DNA of 64,000 bases from an uncultured Candidatus Cloacimonadota bacterium (lineage in GTDB: Bacteria; Cloacimonadota; Cloacimonadia; Cloacimonadales; Cloacimonadaceae), in the NCBI GenBank assembly GCA_964583755.1, contig CAZOVZ010000004.1, positions 4,179 to 68,178 on the forward strand, in the 5' to 3' direction. Numbering within the stretch: position 1 is the stretch's first letter; each line of letters starts with the position of its first letter. Shown here in pieces: positions 16,525-46,534 of this stretch. Made by a program: the position numbers and the translations under genes. The notes beneath the pieces are model-generated. The model had not been told where the DNA came from and ran no database searches. It saw nothing but the letters and a program-made list of their open reading frames with translations.

Positions 16525-16526
16525 CC

Positions 16527-17789: not shown

Positions 17790-17812
17790 CCCCAGAAATA
17801 CTGATAAACAAA

Positions 17813-20391: not shown

Positions 20392-21951
20392 CTATTTCGC
20401 CAGCAGCAGTTTGCGGCAGAGGGAGACGCCTCCAAAGCGCAGCCGGCAAAAATAGATCCCGCTGGGCTGGCCGGCTGCATCCCACTCCAGGGTGTGGCTG
20501 CCTGCCTGGAAGGGGCGGTCTGCCAGGACCGCAACTTTCCTGCCCCGAAGGTCGAATATTTCCAGCCGGGCCTGGCCTGTTTGAGGAAGGCTAAAACTTA
20601 TGCTGGTGCTGGGATTGAAGGGGTTGGGCCAGTTTTGGCTCAGTTCCGGCAGGGAGGCCGGGGAAGCCTGATCCGAAGAGGCGGAACCGCTACCGGCATT
20701 GAAGGTGAAGGCGGTGAACACCGCTTCCTGGCCCACGTCCGGCGGATCGCCGAAATACCAGAGGTTGAGATGCGCCCGGGGCTGTTCAGGCCGGGGGATG
20801 TGGGGGCCAAAGTAGTCCCATTGAAAGATCAGGTTGGTGGGGGATTCGGCGTCGGGCCCGCCATACCAGGCGCGGAATTCCACCCGGTCCGGCTGCCAGT
20901 TGAAGGCATGGCTGGCGATCTGTTCCGCCCCGATGGCGGCGTCGAAACGGGCGATGTTTCCGGTCCAATCCCAGGGTTGGACCACAAACTGGCCGATCTG
21001 GTTGCCGGGTGAGCCCCAACGGCTGTATTCGACATCGATCTCGTTGTAGGGATTCCACCAGGAATAGCCGGGATCCCAGGCGTTGAGATACTGCCAGAGG
21101 AAGATGCCCAGCACGGCGCGTGGATGCAACTGGCCGAGGGGGCCCTGGGTGGTGAAGATGTAATCGCCATAGCCGAGGGCGTCCGCCAGGGTCACCTCCG
21201 TGCTGTACCAGGCTCCGCCGGTCTGGCTGATGGTGAGGTGGAGGCGGTCCTGGGAGTCCACCCAGACGCTTTGGGGCAGATTGCTGAAGTTGTTGGGGCC
21301 GGGGCCGTAGAAGCCCGGGCCCTTGACCCGCCAGGTCCGGTTGGCGAACTGCAGGGTGCGCCCGCCGGGAAAGTCGTCCCACTGGGCCTCGTCGATGGTG
21401 GGAGAAGCGGTGCTGTAGCAGGTGATCTGGTCGAAACAGGCGGAAGCAGCCGGCGCGGACTGGCCCTGAAGGAGGGCGAGGACCAGCCGGAGGGAAGCAG
21501 TTCCAGCCGGGGCGGGAGCGCTGATCTGGTTGAAGGCGAGGTATTGATCCAGAGGGGAGGCGGAACTGGCTACCGGATAGGTTTCCAGGCCCAGGAAGCC
21601 GCCATCCGGGCCAAACCATTCCAGCTTGACGCGGGCGGTGGTTTCGCCGCTTAGAGGCGCGGCGGAGGGGATCAGCACAAAACCGCCGATCCGCCACTGT
21701 TCGCCGGGCGCGCAGCCCAGCTCTTGCCAAAAGCCGGATTCATTGACGGCGCCGGTGGCCTGGCCGTTGGCCAGTGCGGCCAGGGAACCGTGCCAGGCCT
21801 GCGCCGAAGACCCGGTGGAGCCATATTGTTGCCAACCGCCAAAGGCGGATCCGTCGAAAACCTCGAAACTGGGATTGGCCAGGACCTCCTGTCCGGCCAG
21901 GGCGAAACAACAGGACAGCGACAGAAACAGGCAACAAACGCGCAAGATCAT
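20392..21951 (-). CDS. secreted CBM-like + GH16-like (ExDxE) concanavalin-fold protein with T9SS-type CTD
   Basis: ATG at 21951; the ORF-track TTG at 21969 overlaps the upstream stop. The N-terminal CBM4/9-like segment reads NPSFEVFDGSAFGGWQQYGS. A motif ...WWNPYNEIDVEYSRWG is present. The CTD is NWPNPFNPSTSISFSLPQTGQARLEIFDLRGRKVAVL...SGIYFCRL...LLLAK. Confidence 0.6.
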   Translation of the reverse strand: MILRVCCLFLSLSCCFALAGQEVLANPSFEVFDGSAFGGWQQYGSTGSSAQAWHGSLAALANGQATGAVNESGFWQELGCAPGEQWRIGGFVLIPSAAPLSGETTARVKLEWFGPDGGFLGLETYPVASSASPLDQYLAFNQISAPAPAGTASLRLVLALLQGQSAPAASACFDQITCYSTASPTIDEAQWDDFPGGRTLQFANRTWRVKGPGFYGPGPNNFSNLPQSVWVDSQDRLHLTISQTGGAWYSTEVTLADALGYGDYIFTTQGPLGQLHPRAVLGIFLWQYLNAWDPGYSWWNPYNEIDVEYSRWGSPGNQIGQFVVQPWDWTGNIARFDAAIGAEQIASHAFNWQPDRVEFRAWYGGPDAESPTNLIFQWDYFGPHIPRPEQPRAHLNLWYFGDPPDVGQEAVFTAFTFNAGSGSASSDQASPASLPELSQNWPNPFNPSTSISFSLPQTGQARLEIFDLRGRKVAVLADRPFQAGSHTLEWDAAGQPSGIYFCRLRFGGVSLCRKLLLAK

Positions 21952-21961
21952 GGCGGGCAGC

Positions 21962-23749
21962 TCATTCAAAGCGGATGTCGTCCAGATAGAGGATTACGCC
22001 GCGGCCCCGGCCCACCAGGGTCCACCAGAAGGGCGTCCGCACCCGCGAGAGGTCTTTGCCCTTCAGGTCGATCCGGTAGAGTTTCCACTCATTGCCCAGC
22101 TTCACGCCAGGCAATTTGGCGATCGCAGTGTCCGGATATTTGGCTTCGGGGGACTCCAGGCCCACACCGAAATCCACCGTCTCGCCGCCGTATTCGCTGC
22201 GCGCCCAAAAGCTCAGCTGCTTGGCGCCTCTGAGGTCATAACCGCCGGGCAATTCGCCCCAGTTTTGCGGCGGATCCTGCCAGGCCACGCCCACCCAGGT
22301 CTGCGCCGCCTGATAGTGAAAACGCAGGCAGGTGGCGCCGCTATGGGGGGATTCCGTGGACCGGGCGTCCAGGGCGAGGGATTCCACATTGCCCATCCAG
22401 CCGGAGATGGCCCAGGGCTGAGGTTCGGAATCCGCATAGACCGCGAGGGGAAGCCGGAGGCGTGGCGTGCGAATTTCGCCCTCCACATGGATGGGCAGAT
22501 TGGCTGTGGCGGCTCCGCCGGAACCGTCGCGGACGGTGGCGTAGAGGCGGTAGTTGCCGCCGCCGGCAAAGGCCAGTTCGGCCTCCGTGCCAGACGAGCG
22601 TTGGATGATGCCGCCCAGTTCCAAAGGCTGCCACCAGGTATCGCCAAAGGTCAGGTATTCCGGGGCTTCGGGGGTGACGCGCCACTCAACGGAAAGTTCC
22701 GCGCCTTCGGGATCGGCTGCTTCCAACACGGCTTTCAGGGTGTCGCCCGCCTTCACGGAGCTGGGGCCGGCAAATTTTGAGATTTGGGGGCAGAGGTTGG
22801 CGGGCTGCCGGCCACTCCAGATTTCGGTGAGGGCGTCCACTCCACCGAGCTTGTCGCCGTCGGGCAGAAACAGGCCAAACCAGGTGGCGGTGGCTTCCGG
22901 CTTGGCGCCCCAAATGAAGGCGCAGCCGCCCAGACAGAGGTCCGGAGCCTCCAAACAGCCCTGGCGGAAAAAATCACTGTAGAGAAAGGCTTTTTGGGTG
23001 CTGCTGAGTTCCGGCGGGACGCCAAACTCGTTGAGGGAAGTTTCCCAGACTCCGGGAGGGCCGAATTCGGTCACCAAATAGGGTTTGATGCCGCCCAGAG
23101 CCCTGTAGCGGGCTGGCAGCGAGGGCAAACCGCCGTAGCTGTTGATCCCCATGATGTCGATGGAGGGGCAATAGCGGTGGACGGAGGGGACCCGCTGGCC
23201 GCCGATATCGGCTGTGACGACCATTGTGGGATGCCGGGGATCGAGCTGTTTGACCATCGCCGCGAGGGCCTCGATGTGTTTCCAGATGGCAGGGTCGTCG
23301 CCTTCGCCGATGCCTTCCATCTCGTTGCCGATGCCCCAGATCAGCACGGCGGGATGGTCCCGGAAGGCGATCACGTCTTCGCGGATCCGGGCGGTCTGCT
23401 CCGCCAGCATCAGGGAATCCCGATAGTCAAAGCCATGACGGGGATGCCCCAGCCAGTGGCCCACGATCACCGCCAGGCCGAGCGAATCCGCCTGGTCGAG
23501 CTGACTCCGCAGGTCCGGTCCCACGCCCCAGGTGCGGAATGTATTCGCCCGCGAAGCCGCCAGCAGTTCTTTGGAGCCATCGCCGCCGGCTCCCATCACA
23601 TAAAAGGGTTCTCCCCCGCGCAAGAGCTGCCAGTGGCCCTGAGGAGTCTGGATCAGTTCCACCGGGACCGCCAGGGCAGACAACCCCGGCGCCAGCAACA
23701 GCAGCAGACACCAAGCCAGGCCAACCCGGCGGAGGATGACAGGGATCAT
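21962..23749 (-). CDS. secreted clan GH-A (TIM-barrel) glycoside hydrolase with C-terminal beta-sandwich/CBM-like domains
   Basis: ORF 21962..24097 trimmed to the ATG at 23749, which forms an ATGA overlap with the upstream stop. Signal peptide is MIPVILRRVGLAWCLLLLLAPGLSALA. Motifs AVLIWGIGNEMEG (acid/base-like) and YLVTEFGPPG (nucleophile-like). The family (GH2-, GH5- or GH158-like) is not resolved by eye. Confidence 0.6.
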   Translation of the reverse strand: MIPVILRRVGLAWCLLLLLAPGLSALAVPVELIQTPQGHWQLLRGGEPFYVMGAGGDGSKELLAASRANTFRTWGVGPDLRSQLDQADSLGLAVIVGHWLGHPRHGFDYRDSLMLAEQTARIREDVIAFRDHPAVLIWGIGNEMEGIGEGDDPAIWKHIEALAAMVKQLDPRHPTMVVTADIGGQRVPSVHRYCPSIDIMGINSYGGLPSLPARYRALGGIKPYLVTEFGPPGVWETSLNEFGVPPELSSTQKAFLYSDFFRQGCLEAPDLCLGGCAFIWGAKPEATATWFGLFLPDGDKLGGVDALTEIWSGRQPANLCPQISKFAGPSSVKAGDTLKAVLEAADPEGAELSVEWRVTPEAPEYLTFGDTWWQPLELGGIIQRSSGTEAELAFAGGGNYRLYATVRDGSGGAATANLPIHVEGEIRTPRLRLPLAVYADSEPQPWAISGWMGNVESLALDARSTESPHSGATCLRFHYQAAQTWVGVAWQDPPQNWGELPGGYDLRGAKQLSFWARSEYGGETVDFGVGLESPEAKYPDTAIAKLPGVKLGNEWKLYRIDLKGKDLSRVRTPFWWTLVGRGRGVILYLDDIRFE

Positions 23750-25557
23750 TTCAACAGCACGCACTTGCGGATTTCGGCGCCCTGCCCGGCGCTGAGGCGG
23801 TAAAAGTAAACACCCGCTGCCACTGGCCGGCCATCCAAACCGGTGCCGTCCCAGGGCAGACTGTGCTCTCCGGCGGCCAGGCGCGCGTCCGCCAGGGTTT
23901 TCACCTTTTGGCCCAGAATGTTGAAGATTTCCAGGCGGACAGCGGCGGCTTCCTTGAGCGTGAAAGCGATGTTGGTGGCGGGGCGGAAGGGGTTCGGCCA
24001 ATTTGGCTTCAGCACGAAATCCGCCGCCGGGGCGAGGTTTTCGCCGGAGTTCACGCCCCCGCCTTCCCAATAGATGTCGTCCAGGGCAAACGAGCACTGC
24101 GCGCCCTGCTCTTCCAGGATCACAAATTCATAGCTGAGCATCCTCAGGTCGATGTAAAGGCCGCGCAGTTCGGAGACGGGGATGGCGGCCTGAGCCCAGT
24201 CGCCGTTGCGGATCAGGCCAAAGGCGGTCTGATTGGCGGGAAAGGTGACGTAGTTCTGGTTGCCCCAGGAGTCGATGATGCCGATCTTGAAGGTGACGTT
24301 GGCGGGAATCTTGATCCGGAACTTGAGGCTGCCTTCGCCGAAATTGAACAGGTTGACCGGCTGGACGGACATGATCCCGGCGCCAAACCAACCCAGGCCG
24401 GTTGTGGTCCAGGAAATCCCGTTGTCGCCTTCGTAGGGCGGAATCGTGCCCGCTGTGAGGGTGCCTTCCCAGACATAAATCTCCGCGTCCACGCCGATCT
24501 CCAGGGCATCGTCCGTGGGAGTGAGGTCCGTATAAATGCCGTAGGTTCCGCTCTGGAAGGCGGGCGGGCCCAGATGCACCTCGCCCTGGCCGTTCCATTG
24601 ACGCACTTTGATGTAATCTATATACAGGTCCGCCGGAAAGGGCATGGTGACGGGCAGCCCACTGCCCGGATTGCCCAGGCTGTAGGCGTCCGTGAAGGCG
24701 CCGCCGATGGCCAGGTCCGCGATCAGGTAAAAGGGCTGCTGAAACTCCGCGGACTCCGCGTCGATGGCGAAGGGCTCGGTGTAGAGGTCGTATTCGGTGC
24801 CGCCGTCGATCACGGTGAAGCGGAGGCTGGCCTGATCCCAATAGGTGCGGTAGATCAGGTATCTGCCGGTGAGAGGGGGATCGTAGCCGTAGTAGGGGCG
24901 GCAAAAGACGTCTTCCGGATCCCAGGCGAGACTGGCGGCGCCGGAAGGGTTTTCCGGGGTGACGGCGGCCTCGGTATAGAAAAGGGCGTTGGCGCCCACC
25001 ATCTGGTTGACGGTGGAGTTGTTTTGGCCATTGCCGCCGTTGTGGGTATCGTGGAGGTCACGAAACGCCTCCTTGAAACCCATTTCCATGATGTCGATCT
25101 CGCCGTTGCGGGGCCAGGCGTAGTTGGCCGTGCCCAGCATCCAGAGCGCGGGCCAGCCACCCAGATTGATGTTCGGCACCAGGACCCGGGCCTCGATCAT
25201 CCCATACTTGAGCGACACTTTGGATTTGGTGTTCAGCCTGCCGGAGGTGTAATTGAGGGGATTGCCCCACTGATCCACGATCCCCGGGCCGGATTCCTGC
25301 CTGGCGGTGACGCGCAGGGCGCTGTTGCCCGGTTCGCCGGGAATCTCCGCCACCGTGACGTTGGCCGGGGAATAGTATTCCAGTTCGCCGTTGCCCCAGC
25401 CCCAGGAACCGTTGCCGGTCTCGATGATCCAGCCCTCGAGGTTGTTGAAGTTTTCTTCCCAGAGCAGTTCGCCGATCTGGGCGGACAGGGGTACGGCGGC
25501 CAGGAGCAGCGCCGCGAGGAGAGTTTTCACAAGGTGCGGAAAAAGGGACGTTTTCAT
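23746..25557 (-). CDS. GH16 endo-beta-1,3-glucanase (laminarinase-like) + CBM-like domain + T9SS-type CTD
   Basis: ATG at 25557 gives signal peptide MKTSLFPHLVKTLLAALLLAAVPLSAQ. The GH16 catalytic motif is WPRNGEIDIMEM, with WPALWMLG upstream. The CTD is NWPNPFRPATNIAFTLKEAAAVRLEIFNILGQKV...GVYFYRL...VLLK. Confidence 0.85.
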   Translation of the reverse strand: MKTSLFPHLVKTLLAALLLAAVPLSAQIGELLWEENFNNLEGWIIETGNGSWGWGNGELEYYSPANVTVAEIPGEPGNSALRVTARQESGPGIVDQWGNPLNYTSGRLNTKSKVSLKYGMIEARVLVPNINLGGWPALWMLGTANYAWPRNGEIDIMEMGFKEAFRDLHDTHNGGNGQNNSTVNQMVGANALFYTEAAVTPENPSGAASLAWDPEDVFCRPYYGYDPPLTGRYLIYRTYWDQASLRFTVIDGGTEYDLYTEPFAIDAESAEFQQPFYLIADLAIGGAFTDAYSLGNPGSGLPVTMPFPADLYIDYIKVRQWNGQGEVHLGPPAFQSGTYGIYTDLTPTDDALEIGVDAEIYVWEGTLTAGTIPPYEGDNGISWTTTGLGWFGAGIMSVQPVNLFNFGEGSLKFRIKIPANVTFKIGIIDSWGNQNYVTFPANQTAFGLIRNGDWAQAAIPVSELRGLYIDLRMLSYEFVILEEQGAQCSFALDDIYWEGGGVNSGENLAPAADFVLKPNWPNPFRPATNIAFTLKEAAAVRLEIFNILGQKVKTLADARLAAGEHSLPWDGTGLDGRPVAAGVYFYRLSAGQGAEIRKCVLLK

Positions 25558-25667
25558 CGGAGATCCTTTGGCAAACACCGCGCCGGCGTTTGCCTCGATA
25601 TGATCAAAGCCCGTTTGACGGCAGGCGCCAACCGGGCTTTGATACTCATTTTAATGTGTGCCCGGCC

Positions 25668-26288
25668 TCAATCCCGGCGGGACAACGTGCCCGTCTCGGT
25701 ATCGTAGACATAACCCCATTCGCTCAGATCCGCCAACGCGAGCACGGGATCGCTGTAGAGCGGCAACAGGTTTTCCCCGGCGGGATCGTAGAGCAATCCC
25801 CCGACCAGGTTGCGCAGCAGGACTGCATAGTAGGTCTCTTCCTCGATCCAGTCCGCCTTCCACCAGGTCACTCCGTCGAAAAAGTGGTCCAGGGTGGCGC
25901 GGTAGGCGCGGATGGCCTGCTGCCGGGCGTTTTCGCTGCCGCCCGCGGTGTAGAGTTCATGCAGGGATCTGGCGGTGAAATACTGATACTCGCCGATGGG
26001 GATGTTGGCGAGGATCGACGACCAGAGGTAGAATTTCGCCTTGGGCGAGGGGGAGGCATCGTTGAGGTCCCAGATGTTTTCCATGTTGAGGTTGGCGTCC
26101 GCGAAGGGATTGGCGGGGTCGTCCAACACGCTGGTGTCCGGATGGATGCCTTCATTGGGGCCGTAGAGGTCCAAAACGTAATCCGTGGGGAGTTCGGCCA
26201 CGGAGACGGGGTCGCCGGTCTGGCGGTCGCAGCCCGCGATGAAGATCAGCGCCAGGGCCAGGGTGATCAGGATCAGTGTTTGTTTCAC
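25668..26288 (-). CDS. lipoprotein of unknown function (operon partner of the GH/beta-barrel fusion)
   Basis: GTG at 26288 with AAGGAG 6 nt upstream, 10 nt after the upstream stop. Lipobox LALALIFIAGC. Helical-looking C-terminal half. Confidence 0.65.
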   Translation of the reverse strand: MKQTLILITLALALIFIAGCDRQTGDPVSVAELPTDYVLDLYGPNEGIHPDTSVLDDPANPFADANLNMENIWDLNDASPSPKAKFYLWSSILANIPIGEYQYFTARSLHELYTAGGSENARQQAIRAYRATLDHFFDGVTWWKADWIEEETYYAVLLRNLVGGLLYDPAGENLLPLYSDPVLALADLSEWGYVYDTETGTLSRRD

Positions 26289-26298
26289 GCTGTGCTCC

Positions 26299-29200
26299 TT
26301 AAAACTCGTAGCTAAAGTAGAATCCGGATTGGAATTCATAGTCGTTCAGGACTTCCAGGCCTTCGTTGGTGGGAGAGCCGGCGTCCAGGGTCCGCAGCAG
26401 CGACCTGACGCCAAGGCGGCTGGAGTTGGTCTTGGAGAGGAAGTTGTCGATCAGCACGGAATAATCCAGCATGAACTGCCAGGGGAAGGTGATGTTGAAC
26501 TGGCGGTACCAGTCCAGGGGACCCCAGGCGTCCTTTTTGGCGTAGGCGGCGATGTAGTGGCGGTTGTTGAGGATGAATTCCGTGGCCAGGGAAACGTATT
26601 CCGGGGCGGCGCCTTCGGGATTGCCGGAAGACTGCTGCTTGCCGCCTTCCAGGTTGGCGATGATCTTCAATCCGCGGTTGGGATTGAGCACAAAGCGGCC
26701 CTTGGCCAGCCAGACGTCCTCCGCCGGCAGGCCGCTGCCAAACGGGGCGTTGGTGTTGCCTTCCTGGTAGAAAAAGAGGTTGGCGTCCGTCACGGTCTCG
26801 TAGCGGGTCACGTTGCCGCCCACGCTGAAGGCGAACGCGGCGTCCTCCTTGCGGTCGCTGTCCCAGGCGTAGAAATAGCTGGCCGGAGTGGGATCGTAGG
26901 TGAGGAAAAACTCGCCAGCCAGCGCCTGCCGGTTGTCCAGCACGGCAAAGGGATCTTTGTCGCGGTTGCGGGGGCTGAGGCCGGGAAAGAGGTCTGTGCC
27001 GTCGATCGAGGGTTCCAGGCTGGGGTTGGATTCCAGCAGGTTGGTCCGATACAGCGCCCGGGGCAACAGCCAGATATTGCCCAGCGGGATCAGGAGCCCG
27101 CCCTCAAATTCCAGTTTGTTGCCCAGCGCCGAATAGGGCAGGGTGGTGTCGAATTCGCGCAGGGGGCTGCCGCCGTCCGCAACCAATCCGGCCAGGGTGA
27201 CCGAGGCGTCGATCTTGCTGCCGGCGGGGCCGTCCACCGTAGCTTTGGCCTTGAGGCCCTGGGTGTCCAGCAGTTTGATCTGGTCCCGATAGACCTCGCC
27301 GTCCTCGTAGTAGTAAAAGGTTTCATCCAGCTTTTCGCTGCCGGCGAAGAGCCAGCCCAGCTCCAGCTTGGTGCGGGGGATGAGTTTGGTCTCCAGGCTC
27401 AGCGAGGTCTGCCGCGTGGCGCGGGAGGTGGCTTCGGTGGCGGTGGTGGAGGCCTGCGCGCGGGCAAAATCCTCCGCGTGGATCAGGGTGAATTTGGCCA
27501 GCCGGGTGGCCCAGTCGTATTTGACCAGGGCTTTGGGGTTGGCGCCCCAATAGACCTCGGGGCCAGCCACGACGCGGAGTCCGGGCAGAAACTTGTTGCC
27601 CACGAATTCCAGGCCGTAAGGCGCTTTGGCGTTCCAGATGTCCATCCCTTCCATGTCCGTGGCTTCGTAGAGCAGGCCATAGAGGTCGCCCTGGTATTTC
27701 CAATGGTAGCGCGGGACGTGGTAGAAGGCGTTGAGGTCGAAAGCGGGGGTGTGGTAGGTGGCGTCGAAGCTGTAGATCTCCAGGCGTTCGGAATCCTTGA
27801 CCTCGCGGGTAGTGTTCACCGCCAGGCCGGCGGCGTTGGTTTCGGAGATCACGTTCACATAGGTGGCGCCGCGTTTTCCGTAGTATTCGTCGAGCTGTTT
27901 GTCGACCACGTTGCCCAGGATGTTGAGGGTGAAATTGCCCTTGATCCGGCTGATGGGGTTGAAGGCGAAATCCAGAAACAGCATCTCGCCATTGGAAAAA
28001 TCCAGCCCGTTCTTGCCGTTGGTTTCCACCTCGGCGGATTTTCCGTTGAAGACCAGGTCTCCCTCCAGGCTGCCACCAGTGAGCCGGAGCGCGTCGCTCT
28101 GCTGTTTTTCGGCCTGCAGTTGGCGCAGGTTGGCAGCCACGGCGAGAAAATCCATGTCGATCGCCGCCAGTTGAGAGTTCAAGGCGTCACGATCCAGCCC
28201 GGGGAGGTCCATTTTGAACATTTTGGCGATCACGTCGTAGGCCATTCTGGGCCGGGCGGCGTAGACCCCGTCGTCGTTGGGGTCGCCCAGGGCGCAGATG
28301 CCGAACCACTCTTCGTTCATGTTGTTGCGGCCCTCGATGAAGTCAAAGGAATAACCGCCGTTGCTCCAGGAAGCGTTGTTGTCCTGCACGAACAGGTTTT
28401 CTTCCTGCTTGTATTTCCACCATTCGTCGCGCCATTCGAAGAGGCAGCCGCCCAGGGCATTGCCTTCCTCGCCCTTGCCGCGGCTCTTGCGGTAGATCTC
28501 GGACCAGTTGCCCTTCACGATGTGGGCCTGGCCGGACTGGTCCTCCCGGTTTTCCAGGGCGTTGAAGGCGTCGCTGCCAAACTCCATCAGCACGATGGGC
28601 AGGCCCAGTTCCTTATCCACCCGTTTCCAGAGGTCTGTAAAGCTGATCCCCCGGTAGGCGTTGACGCCCAGGAGGTCGAGGCTTTTGCAGGTTCCGGCGA
28701 TCAGGTCCAGATACTGGATATCGCCGTTGACGATGGTGAACGGATGCTTTCGGTCAAGCTGTTTGCCGGCGGCAATGATCTCTTCATAGAGGCTGTAGAG
28801 GTATTTCGCCCGTTCCCGGTGCCGTTCGCCCACGGGCAGGTTTTCGATCTCGAAGCTTGCCCATTCCAGGCCATAGTTGTTTTCGTTGCCCAAAGCGAAC
28901 ATCAGGACGCCCGGAGTGTCGCGGTAGAGCTCCACCACACCGAGGATGTCCCGTTTGATGGCTTCCCGGGTGGCGGGATCGGCATAGTTCGTCTGGGGAA
29001 TCCAGGCTCCGTTCACGTTGAAGCCGTATCTGCCCATCAGATGGTTCACGATGGTCATGATCCCGTGCTCCCGGTGGATGTAGGCCACCCATTTGGGGGG
29101 GATGAGCCCGAAACAGCGGATGGTGTTGATCCCGGCGGCTTTCATCAGTCCGCACTCGTAATCCAGAACGTTCATGATGAATTCATCAGAGTGGCCCCAG

Positions 29201-29364
29201 AGGTTGTAGGAATAATTTTCGCCGACCGGCGTGTAGCCCCAGACGACGCCTTTCACGAAGTAATCTTTGCCGTCCACTTTCAGGCTCCACCCGCCGGCTT
29301 CCTTTTGGGGGTAGACCTGGTTGGTTTCCGCGGCCAGGCGGGGCGCCGCCGCGGTGGAAAACAT
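26299..29364 (-). CDS. clan GH-A glycosidase domain fused to a large C-terminal outer-membrane beta-barrel (signal peptide apparently in another frame, 29423..29362)
   Basis: 1021-aa ORF. The N-terminal ~390 aa carry FALGNENNYGLEW and PIVLMEFGSDAF (GH-A acid/base- and nucleophile-like). The remaining ~620 aa are alternating beta-strand-like sequence ending ...SGFYFSYEF, an aromatic C-terminal OMP signature. A strong RBS (AAGGGAGGA) and the ATG at 29423 encode MTDHGFALKTKLTFIIALMI in the -1 frame relative to the body. Confidence 0.7.
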   Translation of the reverse strand: MFSTAAAPRLAAETNQVYPQKEAGGWSLKVDGKDYFVKGVVWGYTPVGENYSYNLWGHSDEFIMNVLDYECGLMKAAGINTIRCFGLIPPKWVAYIHREHGIMTIVNHLMGRYGFNVNGAWIPQTNYADPATREAIKRDILGVVELYRDTPGVLMFALGNENNYGLEWASFEIENLPVGERHRERAKYLYSLYEEIIAAGKQLDRKHPFTIVNGDIQYLDLIAGTCKSLDLLGVNAYRGISFTDLWKRVDKELGLPIVLMEFGSDAFNALENREDQSGQAHIVKGNWSEIYRKSRGKGEEGNALGGCLFEWRDEWWKYKQEENLFVQDNNASWSNGGYSFDFIEGRNNMNEEWFGICALGDPNDDGVYAARPRMAYDVIAKMFKMDLPGLDRDALNSQLAAIDMDFLAVAANLRQLQAEKQQSDALRLTGGSLEGDLVFNGKSAEVETNGKNGLDFSNGEMLFLDFAFNPISRIKGNFTLNILGNVVDKQLDEYYGKRGATYVNVISETNAAGLAVNTTREVKDSERLEIYSFDATYHTPAFDLNAFYHVPRYHWKYQGDLYGLLYEATDMEGMDIWNAKAPYGLEFVGNKFLPGLRVVAGPEVYWGANPKALVKYDWATRLAKFTLIHAEDFARAQASTTATEATSRATRQTSLSLETKLIPRTKLELGWLFAGSEKLDETFYYYEDGEVYRDQIKLLDTQGLKAKATVDGPAGSKIDASVTLAGLVADGGSPLREFDTTLPYSALGNKLEFEGGLLIPLGNIWLLPRALYRTNLLESNPSLEPSIDGTDLFPGLSPRNRDKDPFAVLDNRQALAGEFFLTYDPTPASYFYAWDSDRKEDAAFAFSVGGNVTRYETVTDANLFFYQEGNTNAPFGSGLPAEDVWLAKGRFVLNPNRGLKIIANLEGGKQQSSGNPEGAAPEYVSLATEFILNNRHYIAAYAKKDAWGPLDWYRQFNITFPWQFMLDYSVLIDNFLSKTNSSRLGVRSLLRTLDAGSPTNEGLEVLNDYEFQSGFYFSYEF

Positions 29365-29472
29365 ATCATCAGCGCGATGATGAACGTTAGTTTTGTTTTC
29401 AAAGCAAAACCGTGATCGGTCATATCATCCTCCCTTAAATTGTCAAAGGAATCTGCAAGATATTGAGCAATT

Positions 29473-29514
29473 ACTGCTATATAGCACTCTCCGCCCGGAG
29501 CGTTTTCGTGTCAA
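29473..29514 (-). promoter_or_regulatory. -35 hexamer plus 16-bp palindromic box upstream of the GH/beta-barrel operon
   Basis: On the minus strand: TTGACA (29514-29509), 20 nt, then AGTGCTATATAGCAGT (29488-29473). The identical 16-mer at identical spacing is found at 31855..31896 on the plus strand. Confidence 0.6.
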
Positions 29515-29807
29515 GCATTTTTTTGCCGCTGATGCAATTATTTGCCGGACAGCGTTCCCAGCGCCACTTGTCACCCGCCCTCTGGCGTCAGGTTCAAGGC
29601 AATGAGAACACCGATTGATGACAGACTGTAGATTAGGATAGCCGCCGGGACTTGCCATCTGGCGGCACTTGGGCTTTGTGGTTATCAGGTGGACACTCGC
29701 CAGTTGTCGCCAAAGAAAACCATCCCACTCCCGCTACTACAGGAGGACAGCTTCCAGGGGAAGGATGCGCACTGACTGGGCAGGGCACTATCGATGTCAC
29801 AGCCCCG

Positions 29808-30252
29808 AAGCATTAAGCGTTAAACAAACGATAAGCAAACCCTTGCGTAATGGTTTATTCATTGCCTGTCAAGGGTTTAGGCCAAGCTTTAAGCAATATC
29901 CGGGCCTTTGACGCCCCGCTGGGATGGAGGCGAAACCTCAACATGCTGGAGTTAGTTAAAGTGTTGATATATATAGTATATATACTATATATTATATAAT
30001 TGTTTTTATTATTTATATTACTTATATTACTTATATGATTACTCCCCTTTACCTCTCAGATTTGCGGCATCAATTCCCCTCTCTTTCCTGCCGGGGGGAT
30101 GGAGAAAGCAGAAATTGCTAAAAGCTTGGGTTAACTTACTGTGGTATATGCAGTTATATGTTAAGCAAGGGTCTGCTTAACGCTTGCTTAATGCTTAGAG
30201 CTTATCAGCCATATTGCTGGTATTCTATGCGGTCGGTGCTTTCGCCTCCATC
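29808..30252. repeat. non-coding hub: inverted sequence modules around an extremely AT-rich palindromic/iterated core
   Basis: Modules and their inverted copies: P 29808-29846 / 30165-30196; Q 29882-29897 / 30114-30129; R 29923-29935 / 30240-30252. The core holds a perfect 24-bp palindrome ATATATAGTATATATACTATATAT (29969-29992) and three tandem 9-mers TTATATTAC (30013-30039, the third imperfect). Confidence 0.8.
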
Positions 30253-30390
30253 ACCCAACCACTTCATCACGTCATCCTGTGATCCCGATGATCATGTCGA
30301 TCCTGTCATCAGAGTTCTATTCTTTTTCACGCGATTTTCCGTGGCCTATTCCAAAAAAAGCGTAACCCACTATCCATAGACGGGGTTGTT

Positions 30391-30592: not shown

Positions 30593-31648
30593 TTAACTAG
30601 GCGGTGGGGCGCAGGTGCCGCGCTTGACCAGGGTCGCTTCCAGGACCAGGTGGCTAAAGTCTGTATTGGCTCCGCCGATCGCGTCCAGGAGCATCTCCAC
30701 GGCTTTGGCGGCCATGGCTTCGATGGGGGCGGCGTTGGTGGTGAGGGGCGGAAAGACCACCGAAGCCATCAGGACGTCGTCGAAGCCCAGGACGCTGATC
30801 TCCTCCGGGATGCGGAATCCGCTCTCCTGGATCACCTTCATGGCGCCTATGGCCATGGAATCGTTGGCGCAGACGATCGCCGTGGGCGGCTGGGTCAGGG
30901 AAGCGAAATACTGGCCGGCCCGTTCGCCGGATTCGAAGGAATAATCGCCCCGGAAGACCAGCTTCGGATCGGCTTTGAGGCCAAAGCGGGCCAGGGCGTT
31001 GCGGTAGCCCAGCAGGCGGTGCTTGCAGACGTCGGAATCCATCAGGCCGGAGACAAAGCCGACGCGGCGATGGCCCAGGGAGAGCAGGTATTCGGTGGAG
31101 TGGCTGCAGCTGTTGAAGTTGTCGATGGTGACGGAGGGGAGGGATTTATCCGCGGCGATGTTGTCCAACAGGACCAGGGGGAGGAAATGCTTGATCTCCT
31201 GGATCCGGTCTTCGATGCGGGGAAAGCAGCAGATGATGGCGCCGTCCACCTTTTTGGTGTTTTTGAGGGGGTTGAGGTCGTCAAAATCTGAAAAGAAAAG
31301 GATGTTGTAGCCGTTTTTGGTGGCCTCGGCCTCCAGCGATTTGAAGACGAGGGAGTAGTAGGGGCTGGAAATGCCATCCTGGATGTTGTCGTCCAAAAAG
31401 AAACCGATGTTGTTGGTGATCCGGGAACCGTTTTTTTTGTGGCCGACATAGGTGCCTTTGGTGCTGTCCTTATAGAGGACACCCTCATCGACCAGCTCCG
31501 CCACGGCCTTGCGCGCCGTCATGTAGGACACGCCCAGCCGCTCCGCCAGGACGCGCTCTCCGGGCAGCTTGTCCACCAGGAGGCCCTGGCCGATCAGGTC
31601 TTTGATCCGGTCTTTGATCCGGATGTACTTGTGGATGGCTTTGGTCAT
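30593..31648 (-). CDS. transcriptional regulator, GntR-type HTH fused to a LacI/PBP1-type sugar-binding domain (AraR-like architecture)
   Basis: N-terminus YIRIKDRIKDLIGQGLLVDKLPGERVLAERLGVSYMTARKAVAELVDEGVLY (GntR wHTH). It is followed by the LacI-family effector domain ...IGFFL...VDGAII...LGHRRVGFVSG...AIVCANDSMAIGAM...IPEEISVLGFDD. ATG at 31648; the ORF-track GTG start is at 31657. Confidence 0.85.
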   Translation of the reverse strand: MTKAIHKYIRIKDRIKDLIGQGLLVDKLPGERVLAERLGVSYMTARKAVAELVDEGVLYKDSTKGTYVGHKKNGSRITNNIGFFLDDNIQDGISSPYYSLVFKSLEAEATKNGYNILFFSDFDDLNPLKNTKKVDGAIICCFPRIEDRIQEIKHFLPLVLLDNIAADKSLPSVTIDNFNSCSHSTEYLLSLGHRRVGFVSGLMDSDVCKHRLLGYRNALARFGLKADPKLVFRGDYSFESGERAGQYFASLTQPPTAIVCANDSMAIGAMKVIQESGFRIPEEISVLGFDDVLMASVVFPPLTTNAAPIEAMAAKAVEMLLDAIGGANTDFSHLVLEATLVKRGTCAPPPS

Positions 31649-31854
31649 CAAACTCACTTCACTTTAGGGCGGCCATGGGGGCCGTATAGCAATCGATCGG
31701 TGCCTGACAGCCGCGAGTTCCGCGTAGGCTCTGTTGCTATCAAGCAATGAAAACAATGATTGCGCAAGCTCCAAATAAGTCAAGTAATCTTTTAAACGGA
31801 GCCCAGGCCTGTTCCGGACGCCGGAGGTATTTTTGGATGAGCACGAAAAAAAGC

Positions 31855-31955: not shown

Positions 31956-34136
31956 ATGGCAATCAAGACGCTGAGTTTGATCTTTGCGGCGGTGGTTTTT
32001 TTGCTGGCCTTTGGCTGCGACAAGATCACGCCTCCGGATCAGGTTCCGGACTCCACGGAACCGGTTAATTACACCCTGGTCTGGGCGGACGAATTTGAAG
32101 CCGCCACCCTCAACGGCAACAATTGGGGCTTCGACCTGGGTTATGGCGACAACGGCTGGGGCAACGACGAGTGGCAGCAATACACCAACGCCCCGGAAAA
32201 TGTGCGGTTGGAAGACGGCAACCTGGTGCTTTCGGCGGTCTGGGATTCGATCAACTATCCCGTGCCCGGCAAGCGCGACGGCTCGGTGACTTCCGCCCGG
32301 ATCAACACCAAGAACAAGTTTTCCTTCAAATTCGGCAAGGCCGAGGCCCGGATCAAAGCGCCCACAGGCAACGGAATGTGGCCGGCGTTCTGGATGCTGG
32401 GCAAGAACCACGACAGCGCCGGCTGGCCCCAGTGCGGCGAGATCGACATCATGGAGCTCAGCCCGCTGCTGCACGGCGACCAGACCACCCTCTGCACCCT
32501 GCACTGGTGGGACGAAGACAGCTCCAGCCATCGCTCCTACGGCACCCGCAAACGCCTGTCCGCCCCGCTCTCCAACGATTACCACGTCTACGGCGTGGAA
32601 TGGGACGAGCAGCGGATAGTCGGCAAGATCGACGGCATGCCCTACTTTGTTAAAGTGATCGATCCGGGCAGCATGGACGAATTTCTGAAAGAGTTTTTCC
32701 TGATCCTCAACGTGGCCGTGGGCGGCAACCTTGGCGGAGCGCCGAATTCCGGCACCGTCTGGCCGCAGAGCATGCTGGTGGATTGGGTGCGGGTGTATCA
32801 AAGCGAAGAATCCCTGATCCCGCTTGAGACCTTTGGCGTCTTTACCGATGAAACGCCGGTGGACGCGGGCCTCACGATCGAAGTGGACGCCCAGATCTAC
32901 GTCTGGGAAAACACCCTCAACCCCGCCACGATCCCACCCTATGAAGGCGCGAACGTGCTTGCCTGGACCAGCGCGGGGGTAGGCTGGTTCGGAGCCGGGA
33001 TCAGTTCCACCACCCCGCTCGACCTCTCCGGGTTCGCCGAGGGCAACATCAAATTCATGATCAAAATGCCCGCCAATGTGACCTTCAAGATCGGCATCAG
33101 CGACAGCGAGGACCATCAAAGCTACGTGAGCTTCCCCGCCAACCAGACCGCCTACGGATTGGTCCGCAACGGGGACTGGGGACAGGCGGTGATCCCGCTT
33201 TCCGCGATCCGGGGCAATGTGGACCTGGAATCGCTGGATTACACCTTCATCATCCTGGAAGAGCAGGGCGCGCAGTGCAGCTTTGCCATCGACGACATCT
33301 ACTGGGACGGCGGGGGATCCACGCCGGGCAGCGTGAGTTTTGACCAGGACAGCTACGCCGATGACGCGGCCAGCGCCACCGTCAGCGTACAAGACCAGGC
33401 GGCGGCGGGGCAGACGGTGAACGTCTCAGTTTCCAACGGCAGGGCGTCAATCGGCCTGGCGATAGAGCTGGACGCCCTCGGCGGTGGCAGCGGAACCCTG
33501 CACTTTGGCCCCACAAACGACGCCACGGATACGATCGCCATCACCGCCGGCGGCTCCATCACCGCGTCCTATACGGACAGCAATGGCACCCTGAGGACGG
33601 ATACCGCCAATATCAGCGGCACCGGACCCTCCACCACGATGGGCATCTATTCGGAATCCCACACCGACCCGATGCTGGCCTACAGCCAGATCGTCAACAG
33701 CGCGGACTGGAGCGGCAATCCCGCCGAACCAAACGAACAGAGTACGGCAGTGACCCCGGTCGACGGCAGCTATGTGCTGTCGGTCAATTTTGCAGACATC
33801 GGAGCCGGTTGGGGCGGGATCGCCTTCAACTTTGGCTCGCAGGACGTCACCGGCTATTCCGCCCTGGTGATCAACATCAACAAGACCGCCATGCCCAACC
33901 TGGCACACTTCGGCATCAAATGGGAAGACAACTCGGGCGGCAACACCCAGGTCGACATCTCCAGCTATACGCCGACGATTTCCGGAAACTGGGCGCGCTA
34001 CGAGATACCCTTGAGCCAGTTTCCGGCGGTTAACTTTTCCCAGGTCAAATTCCTGGGCCTGTGGAACCCCACGACCAGCGCCAACGTCTATATCGTGGGC
34101 AACCTCTATTTCGACGACATCCACTTGATACAATAA
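31956..34136 (+). CDS. GH16 endo-beta-1,3-glucanase lipoprotein with C-terminal CBM-like/Ig-like domains
   Basis: AGGAAGG RBS. Lipobox VVFLLAFGC. GH16 motifs MWPAFWMLG and WPQCGEIDIMEL. The middle CBM-like domain is paralogous to that of 23746..25557 (...IKMPANVTFKIGI.DS...QSYVSFPANQTAYGLVRNGDWGQA.IP...). Confidence 0.85.
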   Translation: MAIKTLSLIFAAVVFLLAFGCDKITPPDQVPDSTEPVNYTLVWADEFEAATLNGNNWGFDLGYGDNGWGNDEWQQYTNAPENVRLEDGNLVLSAVWDSINYPVPGKRDGSVTSARINTKNKFSFKFGKAEARIKAPTGNGMWPAFWMLGKNHDSAGWPQCGEIDIMELSPLLHGDQTTLCTLHWWDEDSSSHRSYGTRKRLSAPLSNDYHVYGVEWDEQRIVGKIDGMPYFVKVIDPGSMDEFLKEFFLILNVAVGGNLGGAPNSGTVWPQSMLVDWVRVYQSEESLIPLETFGVFTDETPVDAGLTIEVDAQIYVWENTLNPATIPPYEGANVLAWTSAGVGWFGAGISSTTPLDLSGFAEGNIKFMIKMPANVTFKIGISDSEDHQSYVSFPANQTAYGLVRNGDWGQAVIPLSAIRGNVDLESLDYTFIILEEQGAQCSFAIDDIYWDGGGSTPGSVSFDQDSYADDAASATVSVQDQAAAGQTVNVSVSNGRASIGLAIELDALGGGSGTLHFGPTNDATDTIAITAGGSITASYTDSNGTLRTDTANISGTGPSTTMGIYSESHTDPMLAYSQIVNSADWSGNPAEPNEQSTAVTPVDGSYVLSVNFADIGAGWGGIAFNFGSQDVTGYSALVININKTAMPNLAHFGIKWEDNSGGNTQVDISSYTPTISGNWARYEIPLSQFPAVNFSQVKFLGLWNPTTSANVYIVGNLYFDDIHLIQ

Positions 34137-34148
34137 AGGGAGCAGAGC

Positions 34149-36086
34149 ATGGGAGCAAGCGTACGTCACTCCACGAGACCGGAAGACAGGATCTCGTTTC
34201 AGCAAAAGCTGGCCTATTCGATAGGCATGTTTGTGAACAACCTGCAGGCAGCAGCCCTGCCGGCAATGGTCGTCATCCTCAACCTGGGGCTGGGGATGGA
34301 CGTGGTTTTGGTGGGCCTGATCGGCTCGATTCCTCGGATCTTCGACGCTGTCTCGGACCCCATCATGGGATTCATTTCGGACAACCACCGCGGCAGGTGG
34401 GGACGCCGCCGGCCCTTCATCTTTGCCGGCGCCCTGCTGGCCGGATTGATCTTCGCCGTGATGTGGCAGTTGCCCTCCGGCTATGTGGATTTCCTGGGCA
34501 AAGACCCTGTGGCCAAGCACCAGGCGATCACAACGGAAACCAGCGAAGCGACGGTGAACGAACAGGGCGGCCTGGGCATCAAGTATGACCCCGAACATCC
34601 CGACGTGTCGTTTGTACTCTACGGGCCCAAACTGCTGTCCACGCAGGCCGGATCAACTTTCGCATCCAACCTGGGCGGATTTCCGCAGGTCGAAATGAAC
34701 GTGGACATCCCCGCCCATAAGACCCTTAAAGTGGCCATGATTGAGGCCGGCATCCCCAATCCGGAGACCTATGCCGTGGATCTTGCCCCGGAGAAATCCC
34801 AGGACGGAAAAGGCAACCTCTACAAATTCAAGGTAGCCGACCTGAAGCTGGTTGAAACGGCCGGAGGAAACCAGACCCTGGACATTCAATCGGTGGGCAG
34901 CGTGGTGGTCAGCATCACCGGGTTGGAAGGCACCGGCACGGCCACCCTCAGTTCCATCAAGCTCCGCAAGCACGAAGGATTCTTCACCAAGTACTTCATC
35001 TATTTCCTGATCATGTCCATCCTCTTCTTCCTGGCCTATACGGTCTACGCCACGCCCTTTGTGGCTTTTGGCTATGAGATGACTCCGGATTACCACGAAC
35101 GGACCAGGCTGCACGCCTTTGCCAATACCGTCGGCCAACTGGCCTGGCTGGGGGTGCCCTGGTTTTACGCCATCATGTCCAGCGCCCTGTTCCGGGATTC
35201 CGTGCACGGGGCGCGCACCCTGGCTATCTTTGTGGGTATCGCAGTGGCGGCATTGGGTGTTATTCCGGCAATTTTCCTGCGGGAAACCCAAGTCCTCGAG
35301 CCGGTGCAAAAAGTGGCCAAAGGCGTGTGGAAAAACCTGGCGGAGTTCTTCAGCGGGATCAAGACCACCTTCAAATGCAAGCCCTTTGTCCAGATCTGCG
35401 GGGCGACCTTCCTGGTGTTCAACGGATTCCAGCTGGGAGCTTCATTCTCGCTCTACGTGATGATCTATTACCTCTTCAACGGCAACAACTCCAGCGCGGG
35501 CAAGCTGATGGGCTGGTATGGTATGCTGACCTCCATCGCCACCCTGGGAGTGATCCAACTCACCGGCTGGATCGCCACCCGGATCGGCAAACAGAAGACC
35601 TTCCTGCTCACGATCAGCCTCTCGCTGATAGGATTCGCGCTCAAATGGTTTGGATACAATCCCGCCCATCCCTATTGGTTGCTGTTCGCCGCGCCCTTTG
35701 TGGCGTTCGGCACGGGATCCCTGTTCACCCTGATGGGGGCGATGATCTCCGACGTCTGCGATTACGACGAAGTCACGACCCATCAGCGCCGGGAAGGCGT
35801 GTTCGGCGCCATCTACTGGTGGATGGTGAAGATCGGGATGTCCCTGGCCGGGCTGCTGACCGGCGTGCTGCTGAAAATATCGAAGTTTGATCTCGCCCTG
35901 GGCTCCGGACAGGAAGAACGCACCCTGTTCCTGCTGAGGGTGTTCGATGTCACCATACCCCTGATCACCTCGGCGATAGCGATCCTGATCATTGCCAGAT
36001 ACACTCTGACAGAAGACAAGGCCTACGAGATTCGCGGCATCCTGGAAGCCCGCCGCAAAAAGACGCCCGAACCCGCGGAGAATTAG
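34149..36086 (+). CDS. GPH-family (MelB-like) glycoside:cation symporter with a ~170-aa inserted extracytoplasmic domain
   Basis: AAGGGAG RBS. GPH signature FDAVSDPIMGFISDNHRGRWGRRRPF. There are 12 TM-like segments, but residues ~111-279 between TM3 and TM4 are hydrophilic and beta-rich. Confidence 0.8.
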   Translation: MGASVRHSTRPEDRISFQQKLAYSIGMFVNNLQAAALPAMVVILNLGLGMDVVLVGLIGSIPRIFDAVSDPIMGFISDNHRGRWGRRRPFIFAGALLAGLIFAVMWQLPSGYVDFLGKDPVAKHQAITTETSEATVNEQGGLGIKYDPEHPDVSFVLYGPKLLSTQAGSTFASNLGGFPQVEMNVDIPAHKTLKVAMIEAGIPNPETYAVDLAPEKSQDGKGNLYKFKVADLKLVETAGGNQTLDIQSVGSVVVSITGLEGTGTATLSSIKLRKHEGFFTKYFIYFLIMSILFFLAYTVYATPFVAFGYEMTPDYHERTRLHAFANTVGQLAWLGVPWFYAIMSSALFRDSVHGARTLAIFVGIAVAALGVIPAIFLRETQVLEPVQKVAKGVWKNLAEFFSGIKTTFKCKPFVQICGATFLVFNGFQLGASFSLYVMIYYLFNGNNSSAGKLMGWYGMLTSIATLGVIQLTGWIATRIGKQKTFLLTISLSLIGFALKWFGYNPAHPYWLLFAAPFVAFGTGSLFTLMGAMISDVCDYDEVTTHQRREGVFGAIYWWMVKIGMSLAGLLTGVLLKISKFDLALGSGQEERTLFLLRVFDVTIPLITSAIAILIIARYTLTEDKAYEIRGILEARRKKTPEPAEN

Positions 36087-36095
36087 GATACGGCC

Positions 36096-38848: not shown

Positions 38849-38873
38849 CATCCGATCTCATAAGGAGAAAACC

Positions 38874-40256: not shown

Positions 40257-40286
40257 AACCCCAATCAGCTTGCAAAGGAGCTATCA

Positions 40287-43058: not shown

Positions 43059-43160
43059 ACTAACCGGGGCCTGGCCAACCCAGGCCCCCGCTGATTTGGA
43101 ACCCAAAGCGTCCGCGCCGCCGCACCCGGCAGTGCGGGCCGCTTTGGGCTTCAGACGGCG

Positions 43161-46502: not shown

Positions 46503-46534
46503 CCCTACAATCTAACTTTATGGAGAATACATCG

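Follow-up and report, generated by a model that had tools for sequence, protein, structure and literature searches.

A conserved fusion of a putative beta-1,3-glucanase to a predicted outer-membrane barrel, with a lipoprotein partner, as a candidate TonB-independent module for laminari-oligosaccharide uptake

The known routes by which large glycans cross the outer membrane depend on TonB-dependent machines of the SusCD type. A stretch of 64,000 nucleotides from an uncultured Candidatus Cloacimonadota bacterium (assembly GCA_964583755.1, contig CAZOVZ010000004.1, positions 4,179 to 68,178 of the forward strand), hereafter referred to as the window, raises the question of whether glucan may also enter the cell by other means. 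The window contains a beta-glucan locus for which an initial annotation, made from the DNA letters, had reported neither a SusC/SusD pair nor a TonB-dependent receptor. The Pfam scan, which covered all plausible open reading frames (ORFs) of at least 600 amino acids in the window and the locus genes of 362 to 595 amino acids, agrees with that report, with no TonB-dependent receptor or SusD match among the scanned proteins. The locus presents instead a minus-strand gene (26299..29364; 1021 amino acids plus stop) whose product encompasses a GH158-like triosephosphate isomerase (TIM) barrel, a helical linker and a large C-terminal predicted beta-barrel, followed by a gene encoding a small lipoprotein (25668..26288). 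The same annotation had proposed that an enzyme fused to its own outer-membrane channel could be an alternative to SusCD, a proposal that the architecture and the genomic context support and in which transport itself is the inferred part. On balance, we regard it as probable, if not secure, that the gene pair (29423..25668, minus strand) encodes a TonB-independent channel for laminari-oligosaccharides, together with a glucanase tethered to it and a partner lipoprotein.

The N-terminal domain (residues 17-383; 28216..29316, minus strand) was assigned to the clan GH-A glycosidases, with a (beta/alpha)8 fold nearest to the beta-1,3-glucanases of glycoside hydrolase (GH) families GH158 and GH157. 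A full-length AlphaFold2 model, built on a profile (A1) of 61 full-length homologues, reached a mean predicted local distance difference test score (pLDDT) of 82.6 and a predicted template modelling score (pTM) of 0.66. In this model, N160-E161 lie at the end of strand 153-158 and E261 at that of strand 257-262, the arrangement expected of clan GH-A. The predicted acid/base, E161 (28882..28884, minus strand), lies at the end of beta-4 in an NE motif (GNE at 28882-28890), and the predicted nucleophile, E261 (28582..28584, minus strand), at the end of beta-7 in the sequence EFG (LME at 28582-28590). Both residues are invariant in the 61 homologues of the A1 alignment, and they fall in the FALGNENNYG and VLMEFGSDAF segments that the initial annotation had placed at the acid/base and nucleophile positions.

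Foldseek searches with the full-length model, in which the GH domain dominated the matches, returned the GH158 structures 9P26, 9ORO and 6PAL (BuGH158) as top PDB matches (E ~1e-13), with target-normalised TM-scores of 0.58-0.59, followed by the GH157 laminarinase 9G5G and then by GH2 glucuronidases. The identity of the domain to the GH158 structures is ~15%. A search of the A1 profile against the PDB matched GH158(Pro) with an E-value of 3.9e-6 over profile positions 154-285 only, aligning E161 with the acid/base Glu143 and E261 with the nucleophile Glu229 of that enzyme, in its published numbering (PMC13195107). A single-sequence PDB search of the domain yielded weak matches to a GH2 beta-galactosidase and to GH158 (E 0.031), and the only Pfam match on this domain was a sub-threshold one to the GH2 TIM barrel.

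The domain resembles GH158 (BuGH158, 6PAL; GH158(Pro), 9ORO and 9P25) and GH157 (9G5G) in its (beta/alpha)8 clan GH-A fold, in the Asn-Glu pair on beta-4 and the nucleophilic Glu on beta-7, which match residue for residue, and in its occurrence in beta-1,3-glucan loci. It differs from GH158 in lacking the Ig-like domain that follows the TIM barrel in that family (PMC13195107), presenting instead the linker and the barrel: after residue 383, the model has helices and then the barrel strands. A further difference lies in two strongly conserved, family-specific insertions, one after beta-4 (YGLEWSSFEIENLP.GE) and one after beta-8 (~residues 331-351), both with pLDDT below 50, which may form an interface with a partner or with the substrate. 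With 26% identity to the domain (E 1e-13), a soluble GH158-like enzyme encoded in the same locus (21962..23749) is its distant paralogue. From sequence and model, we conclude that the domain is a predicted active retaining glycosidase of clan GH-A, as initially annotated and as now indicated by the fold matches, the profile match and the aligned catalytic glutamates. It is most likely a beta-1,3-glucanase, distantly related to GH158 but not a demonstrated member of that family.

The linker (residues 384-425; 28090..28215, minus strand) contains a confidently modelled 20-residue helix (404-423), is weakly conserved in sequence and is absent from the stand-alone barrels described below. A separate AlphaFold2 model of residues 395-1021 was made because the GH domain had dominated the full-length Foldseek search, and reached a pTM of 0.68. 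In both models the helix is followed by ~28 long antiparallel strands joined by hairpins (426-1020), which define a predicted outer-membrane beta-barrel (residues 426-1021; 26302..28089, minus strand) with no plug domain and no cysteines. Foldseek searches with the C-terminal model returned outer-membrane beta-barrels as all 50 of the 50 best PDB matches (E 4e-9 to 3.5e-7, probability 1.00), with AlgE at the top and BtuB, Cir, PirA, FrpB, PfeA, LptD, chitoporin and OccK among the others. The protein ends in QSGFYFSYEF (26302..26331, minus strand), a C-terminal beta-signal whose terminal Phe is present in at least 90% of homologues and which contains the aromatic signature recognised in the initial annotation. 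The reading of the last ~620 residues as an outer-membrane barrel, and not as a soluble repeat domain, is supported by the ~28 strands, by the fold matches and by relatives fused to OmpA domains. Turns of 2-3 residues are found only at even-to-odd strand junctions, a pattern in keeping with periplasmic turns, an even number of strands and a barrel whose two ends both lie in the periplasm. Barrel closure and the exact number of strands are predictions of the model. Scans of the protein gave no Pfam or NCBIfam match for the barrel, and PDB searches with its sequence and with a profile (A2) gave nothing meaningful. Invariant motifs rich in aromatic residues (YHW.Y, DIWNAKAP, FYAWD and DAWGP.DWYRQF in the A1 alignment) mark its long loops and recall the sugar-binding 'greasy slides' of glycoporins.

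The fusion is conserved well beyond the window. A word-indexed protein search identified 4010 homologues (E <=1e-3), and nearly all of the best 120 among them are full length (~1020-1060 amino acids, 52-82% identity). These 120 stem from Cloacimonadota (Ca. Syntrophosphaera or Cloacimonas), Delongbacteria and Gammaproteobacteria, and include the cultured strain Thioalkalivibrio sp. XN8, which carries the fusion. In a species-level survey scanning one genome per GTDB species, a relative was found in 298 genomes, and domain order was analysed by tblastn in the best 80 loci, setting aside those cut by contig ends. The GH domain lies directly upstream of the barrel in all assessable loci (76/76). 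The surveyed loci belong to Cloacimonadota, one Gemmatimonadota, many Woeseiaceae, Ectothiorhodospiraceae, Steroidobacteraceae, Chromatiales, Hahella and one Mariprofundus, so that the fusion is carried by at least four lineages (Cloacimonadota, Gemmatimonadota, Gamma- and Zetaproteobacteria). Homologues are therefore not split into separate genes, the outcome that the initial annotation had named as pointing to a fusion artefact, and a chimeric assembly was rejected given the conservation of the fusion across phyla.

An exhaustive hidden Markov model search with the barrel profile yielded only 397 clusters at 50% identity, and the barrel family is therefore compact. The GH-barrel arrangement is its dominant architecture, with variants that carry an N-terminal CBM_4_9 domain (CBM_4_9-GH-barrel, P0181) or two GH-like domains ahead of the barrel (P0148). 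In two distant members without a GH domain (P0265 and P0249), a signal peptide and the barrel are followed by an Ig-like domain and, at the C-terminus, by an OmpA peptidoglycan-binding domain (PF00691, E ~1e-22); in them the barrel has been reused as an OmpA-type envelope protein. The position of the OmpA domain after the barrel indicates that the C-terminus of the barrel is periplasmic, and supports residence in the outer membrane. Stand-alone barrels of 575-600 amino acids with their own signal peptides (P0132, P0138, P0164 and P0300) were also identified in a clade of marine Gammaproteobacteria, with the isolate Marinobacterium sp. xm-a-152 among the carriers. Because stand-alone barrels near ATP-binding cassette (ABC) importers and barrel-OmpA fusions both exist, the barrel is, as far as sequence comparison can tell, an autonomous outer-membrane module.

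The second gene of the pair (25668..26288, minus strand) starts 10 nucleotides after the fusion gene, as initially described, and encodes a 206-residue lipoprotein that begins VKQTLILITLALALIFIAGC and contains the lipobox IAGC, with Cys20 at 26229-26231. A homologue lies directly downstream of the fusion in 75/75 assessable loci (tblastn), and the window and Thioalkalivibrio proteins share 38% identity across phyla. The lipobox Cys is conserved. Cloacimonadota have D-[RV]-K-x-G directly behind it, and Gammaproteobacteria a Gly/acidic linker; further conserved motifs are LPTD, FYLW, GE.QY..A..LHELY, AYR..LD and EWGY. Searches against Pfam, NCBIfam and, with a profile (A3), the PDB returned no match for the lipoprotein, and hence none to SusD. 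Among the stand-alone barrels, P0132 is followed by a lipoprotein whose N-terminal part is homologous to that of the window and which has an extra C-terminal domain; the Marinobacterium locus and a locus on a TARA contig have no adjacent lipoprotein. Long C-terminal extensions are present in some homologues, such as the L005 neighbour (>412 amino acids) and L068 (415 amino acids).

The genomic association of the pair is consistently catabolic. Genes encoding GH16, GH17, GH3, GH30 or GH149 enzymes were found within 6 kb in 49/49 fusion loci with complete 6-kb flanks. A second Cloacimonadota contig (L002) presents the same gene set as the window, and in Thioalkalivibrio sp. XN8 (L004) the pair lies among genes for GH16, two GH17, GH3, a major facilitator superfamily (MFS) transporter and a LacI regulator; GH16, GH17, GH3, GH30, MFS and LacI genes make up the context of both loci. 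No TonB-dependent receptor and no other outer-membrane channel was found in these two annotated contexts. In the window, the minus-strand cluster runs from a regulator combining a GntR helix-turn-helix with a LacI-type sugar-binding domain (30593..31657), placed upstream on the same strand as it is in L002, through the fusion and the lipoprotein to a GH16-type laminarinase with a type IX secretion system (T9SS) C-terminal sorting domain, predicted to be extracellular (23746..25578), the soluble GH158/GH2_C-like enzyme (21962..23749), which bears a signal peptide of its own and is encoded three genes downstream of the fusion, and finally a protein with a T9SS C-terminal sorting domain (20392..21969). 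A divergent beta-glucan catabolic cluster occupies the plus strand (31956..48463), with genes for GH16, MFS_2, GH30, GH17-like, T9SS sorting-domain, 923-residue, GH149-like and GH3 proteins. Most informative are the stand-alone barrels, which also lie in glucan loci, in the order SBP_bac_5, two permeases, two ATPases, LacI, barrel and secreted GH16 in Marinobacterium, and barrel, SBP_bac_5, ABC transporter, LacI and GH16 on the TARA contig. Such a neighbourhood, beside a binding-protein importer, is what one would expect of an uptake channel.

The gene itself required a correction. It had been annotated as 26299..29423 with a product of 1021 amino acids, and the 1021-codon minus-strand ORF is real, its product being identical to an entry of a public protein collection (P0001). 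Its correct 5' end is, however, 29364: the ATG at 29423 sits in another frame than the main ORF (29423-29364 = 59 nucleotides), and the two figures are thus mutually incompatible. The out-of-frame segment (29365..29423, minus strand) codes for the n- and h-regions of a signal peptide. Read from the ATG at 29423, which is preceded by a GGGAGG ribosome-binding site (~29431-29436, minus strand), its product, MTDHGFALKTKLTFIIALM, matches the signal-peptide sequence seen in homologues (MIDFGFxxKTKLLFII...). When the DNA was aligned with that of four relatives, the window proved to lack one T at ~29365 (ATA-TG versus ATATTG/ATGTTG), a frameshift that the initial annotation had overlooked. Putting this T back yields MTDHGFALKTKLTFIIALMILFSTAAAPRLAAETNQ..., a normal signal peptide, and a precursor of 1041 amino acids, the length of most homologues. 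As assembled, the window copy has no in-frame signal peptide; Sec signal peptides are present in homologues. An independent Logan assembly of run SRR8925738 carries the identical deletion, which is therefore either a systematic read error or a real inactivating lesion in the population.

An antisense ORF of 1076 amino acids (26185..29415, plus strand) spans the whole gene, and further long antisense ORFs are present in the window. We rejected the plus-strand frame as a real gene, since all the homology and structure evidence fits the minus-strand frame; it is most likely an artefact of high GC content. Long antisense ORFs of this kind are typical of high-GC DNA and a potential trap for gene callers.

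Taken together, these data suggest a mechanism. The large protein would be exported by the Sec system and inserted by the beta-barrel assembly machinery through its C-terminal beta-signal. Extracellular trimming of the substrate by T9SS-secreted GH16 enzymes would come first, and the plugless barrel of ~600 residues would pass laminari-oligosaccharides, or whole laminarin chains, across the outer membrane. The GH158-related domain, tied to strand 1 by the helical linker, would sit where the barrel opens into the periplasm and cut the chains on emergence, so that the inward gradient would stay steep, and the products would feed the GH17, GH30 and GH3 enzymes, an MFS or ABC importer and a cytoplasmic phosphorylase. 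The lipoprotein, of ~190 amino acids, would act as an obligate partner that plugs, gates or caps the wide barrel.

Several lines of evidence underlie these steps. A channel role is suggested by the size and autonomy of the barrel, its placement next to importers, the absence of a further outer-membrane transporter from the loci and the invariant aromatic loop motifs. The beta-1,3-glucan substrate is assigned because of the gene context and the GH158-type active site. A barrel so wide needs occlusion, which makes the obligate lipoprotein an obvious candidate for a plug, as in LptE, or for a lid, as in SusD; by these analogies, it probably plugs, gates or caps the barrel. The even strand count and the periplasmic C-terminus would most likely place the GH domain at the periplasmic mouth, in the manner of the N-terminal domains of LptD or BamA, judging from the models and from this analogy. 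The membrane side of the enzyme is the weakest point of the proposed mechanism.

A stronger version of this mechanism can be put forward only tentatively, and we consider it rather doubtful: a hydrolysis-driven, TonB-independent translocon in which a processive GH158-type domain at the periplasmic exit, and not the proton-motive force, would give transport its direction, with the lipoprotein as a gate. GH158(Pro) is described as processive, with a tunnel-like active site (PMC13195107), and on that account a ratchet that cleaves the chain as it emerges is conceivable, as speculation.

Comparison with known outer-membrane systems helps to define what the module is. As in SusC/SusD, a barrel gene adjoins a lipoprotein gene in a glycan locus with surface endo-glycanases and periplasmic exo-enzymes. 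SusC, however, has a plug and a TonB box, and the barrel has neither, nor any Pfam match to TonB_dep_Rec or SusD models; SusD has ~500-600 amino acids, a tetratricopeptide-repeat-like fold and SusD/RagB domains, whereas the lipoprotein of the module has ~190 amino acids; and SusC/SusD comprise no covalently fused enzyme. More generally, no Pfam or NCBIfam match pointed to the plug, TonB box and 22-strand barrel of TonB-dependent transporters (PF07715, PF00593), and a transporter of this type with a degenerate plug was rejected, as there is no plug segment and the barrel directly follows the linker or, when it stands alone, the signal peptide. LptD/LptE combine, like the module, an N-terminal extra-membrane domain, a very large barrel (26 strands) and a lipoprotein of ~170-190 amino acids that plugs it, and LptD is among the fold matches of the C-terminal domain (TM-score 0.25-0.31). 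The N-terminal domain of LptD is nevertheless a beta-jellyroll and that of the module an enzyme in a context of sugar catabolism; no LptD/OstA Pfam match and no sequence relation was found, and the resemblance is one of generic fold.

Sugar channels such as LamB/ScrY, ChiP, CymA and OprB are, like the module, TonB-independent and encoded in oligosaccharide utilisation loci; chitoporin is among the low-scoring fold matches of the barrel, and the loop motifs of the latter are aromatic-rich. These channels have 14-18 strands and ~350-450 amino acids, are often trimeric and lack a fused enzyme or dedicated lipoprotein, and no Pfam match (E <=0.1) to the LamB, OprB or ChiP/OprD models was obtained for the barrel. 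We propose, by analogy, that the module works like a glycoporin or a SusCD analogue built from undescribed families.

Some of the evidence weighs against the proposed mechanism. TM-scores to known barrels are low (0.25-0.40) and none of these barrels is a close relative; whether the barrel closes, and where the GH domain sits, is deduced solely from Foldseek matches and strand parity; hydrophobic alternation, on which we place no reliance, discriminates weakly between barrel strands and TIM strands (2.1 versus 1.7); and the window copy of the fusion gene bears the frameshift. The stand-alone barrels of L006 and L087 lack an adjacent lipoprotein, which suggests that the lipoprotein may serve the GH domain and not the barrel. 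The N-terminal CBM_4_9 domain of P0181 fits polymer binding at the cell surface, and a helix right before strand 1 is also used by autotransporters to pass their passenger outward.

These last two points lead to the alternative that best withstands the evidence, which is surface display in the manner of type V autotransporters. Here the barrel would anchor and translocate the enzyme, with the helix (404-423) running through the pore, and the GH158-like domain would cut laminarin outside the cell; the enzyme may feed its own barrel with products, and the lipoprotein would be a surface glycan-binding partner. Type V proteins such as EstA and PlpD share with the fusion the order of N-terminal enzyme, helical linker and C-terminal barrel. 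Passage of the confidently modelled helix through the pore would also fit an even-strand topology, the long C-terminal extensions of some lipoproteins (the L005 neighbour and L068) could be binding modules, and BuGH158 of Bacteroides is a cell-surface enzyme. Type V barrels have, however, 12 or 16 strands and serve display or secretion, compared with ~28 predicted strands and a proposed role in uptake for the module, and no Pfam match was detected to the autotransporter models of the 12-strand Va and 16-strand Vd types (PF03797 and related). The helix is poorly conserved and missing from stand-alone barrels, a single helix is insufficient to close a pore of this width, and a T9SS-secreted GH16 enzyme of the locus already serves surface cleavage. 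We know of no precedent for a TIM barrel of 390 residues passing through such a barrel, and on this evidence we hold surface display to be unlikely.

A second alternative, which we consider very unlikely, would see no transport in the barrel at all: an OmpA-like anchor would merely tether a periplasmic glucanase and the lipoprotein, and oligosaccharides would enter via other porins. The pore function of the barrel is inferred only, and the fusions of its family to OmpA peptidoglycan-binding domains look structural. Nonetheless, ~600 residues and ~28 strands far exceed the needs of an anchor, the aromatic-rich loop motifs are invariant, stand-alone barrels lie beside periplasmic binding protein and ABC importer genes in laminarin loci, and the two annotated fusion loci encode no other channel through which the oligosaccharides could pass.

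Glucan export is the third alternative. The module would then be the outer-membrane end of synthase-dependent beta-glucan secretion, with the barrel in the role of AlgE, BcsC or PgaA, the helical lipoprotein in that of AlgK or PelC, and the hydrolase in that of BcsZ, PgaB or AlgL. Export systems typically join a barrel, a lipoprotein and a periplasmic glycosidase, as in AlgE/AlgK, BcsC/BcsZ and PgaA/PgaB, AlgE is the top fold match of the C-terminal domain, and L002 has a cyclic-glucan-synthase-like gene at a distance of ~6 kb. Against AlgE, the TM-score nonetheless reaches only ~0.27-0.39, exopolysaccharide export barrels come with synthase genes, and no glycosyltransferase or synthase is consistently linked to the module, whose context is strictly catabolic: catabolic GH genes in every one of the 49 loci, sugar importers and LacI- or GntR-type repressors. 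Export is accordingly extremely unlikely. Equally improbable is an assembly or annotation artefact, be it a chimeric ORF or a dead locus, for the single deleted nucleotide does part the signal peptide from the ORF in both the window and the Logan contig, but the fusion is intact (~1040 amino acids) in nearly all of the best 120 homologues and contiguous in every assessable locus, and bar that one base the ORF is unbroken over 3 kb with all invariant residues kept, so that at most the window copy would be affected.

Other features of the window and of related loci were recorded alongside the module. A conserved element (29465..29525, minus strand), ~60 nucleotides upstream of the start codon, was identified by blastn of the intergenic region against the other loci. 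No other part of the 1.17-kb intergenic region is conserved in Cloacimonadota relatives, which makes the element a candidate promoter or operator. A scan of 25500-30700 with promoter and terminator consensus sequences gave matches at chance level, and no Rfam match at the gathering threshold was found in the window. The same intergenic region contains an element (29805-30195) with an extremely AT-rich core (~29960-30045) in a genome of ~60% GC, flanked by nested inverted repeats with arms of 24 nucleotides (29877-29900/30111-30134) and 15 nucleotides (29815-29829/30171-30185). This element is present once in the window, is not conserved in relatives, and may be an insertion resembling a miniature inverted-repeat transposable element or a structured element. 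Right after the stop codon of the GntR/LacI regulator lies a tandem 16-nucleotide direct repeat (30556-30587; two copies of TCCGTTCAACCGTTCG).

In the plus-strand cluster, the 923-residue secreted protein (40287-43058) has repeated modules resembling carbohydrate-binding domains and an end of Fn3-type appearance; it has no Pfam or NCBIfam match and is probably a glucan-binding protein of the locus. The GH149-like protein (43161-46502, plus strand; 1113 amino acids) is a weak match, at 93 bits, to the GH149 beta-1,3-glucan phosphorylase model, whose cutoff is 1150; it may be a divergent relative or possibly have a different activity. In Thioalkalivibrio sp. XN8, two proteins of ~1150-1190 amino acids flank the module (L004 6375-9941, plus strand, and 15863-19324, minus strand), one with CBM_4_9 repeats and the other with no Pfam match. 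Their homologues occur in ~20/31 gammaproteobacterial loci, and they may be further parts of the system in Gammaproteobacteria. Outside the glucan locus, the window encodes a 464-residue protein with an unusual pairing of a TerD domain and a C-terminal OmpA peptidoglycan-binding domain (16395-17789, plus strand) and, unrelated to the locus, two paralogous CitMHS-family transporter genes around a gene combining a phosphotransferase system domain (PTS-EIIA-2) with CBS domains (53341-56881, plus strand).

The initial annotation did not recognise the architecture as a described system, and our literature searches likewise found no description of a glucanase-barrel fusion. The barrel is not mentioned in the GH158 structure paper (PMC13195107) or in surveys of Cloacimonadota and Woeseiaceae. 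These surveys do list GH158 in glucan loci. The fusion genes may be among those counted as GH158 in surveys of polysaccharide utilisation loci. Source annotations name the proteins 'hypothetical protein', 'beta-galactosidase' or 'GH2 TIM barrel-domain containing protein', and since they are annotated as hypothetical or as enzymes only, their transport half is invisible to metagenome-based inference of carbon cycling. Laminarin represents one of the largest carbon fluxes of the ocean, according to a study of this glucan (PMC6246565). There is a realistic chance that the mechanism is new. If a hydrolysis-driven translocon were indeed at work, it would be a mechanistically new route for the 'selfish' uptake of large glycans without SusCD, and the carriers among Cloacimonadota, Gemmatimonadota and sediment Gammaproteobacteria would be using such non-SusCD uptake. 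The family, with more than 4000 proteins and a barrel and a lipoprotein that lack a curated model, is a concrete candidate for non-SusCD glycan uptake, and its cultured carriers, Thioalkalivibrio sp. XN8 for the fusion and Marinobacterium sp. xm-a-152 for the stand-alone barrel, make it testable.

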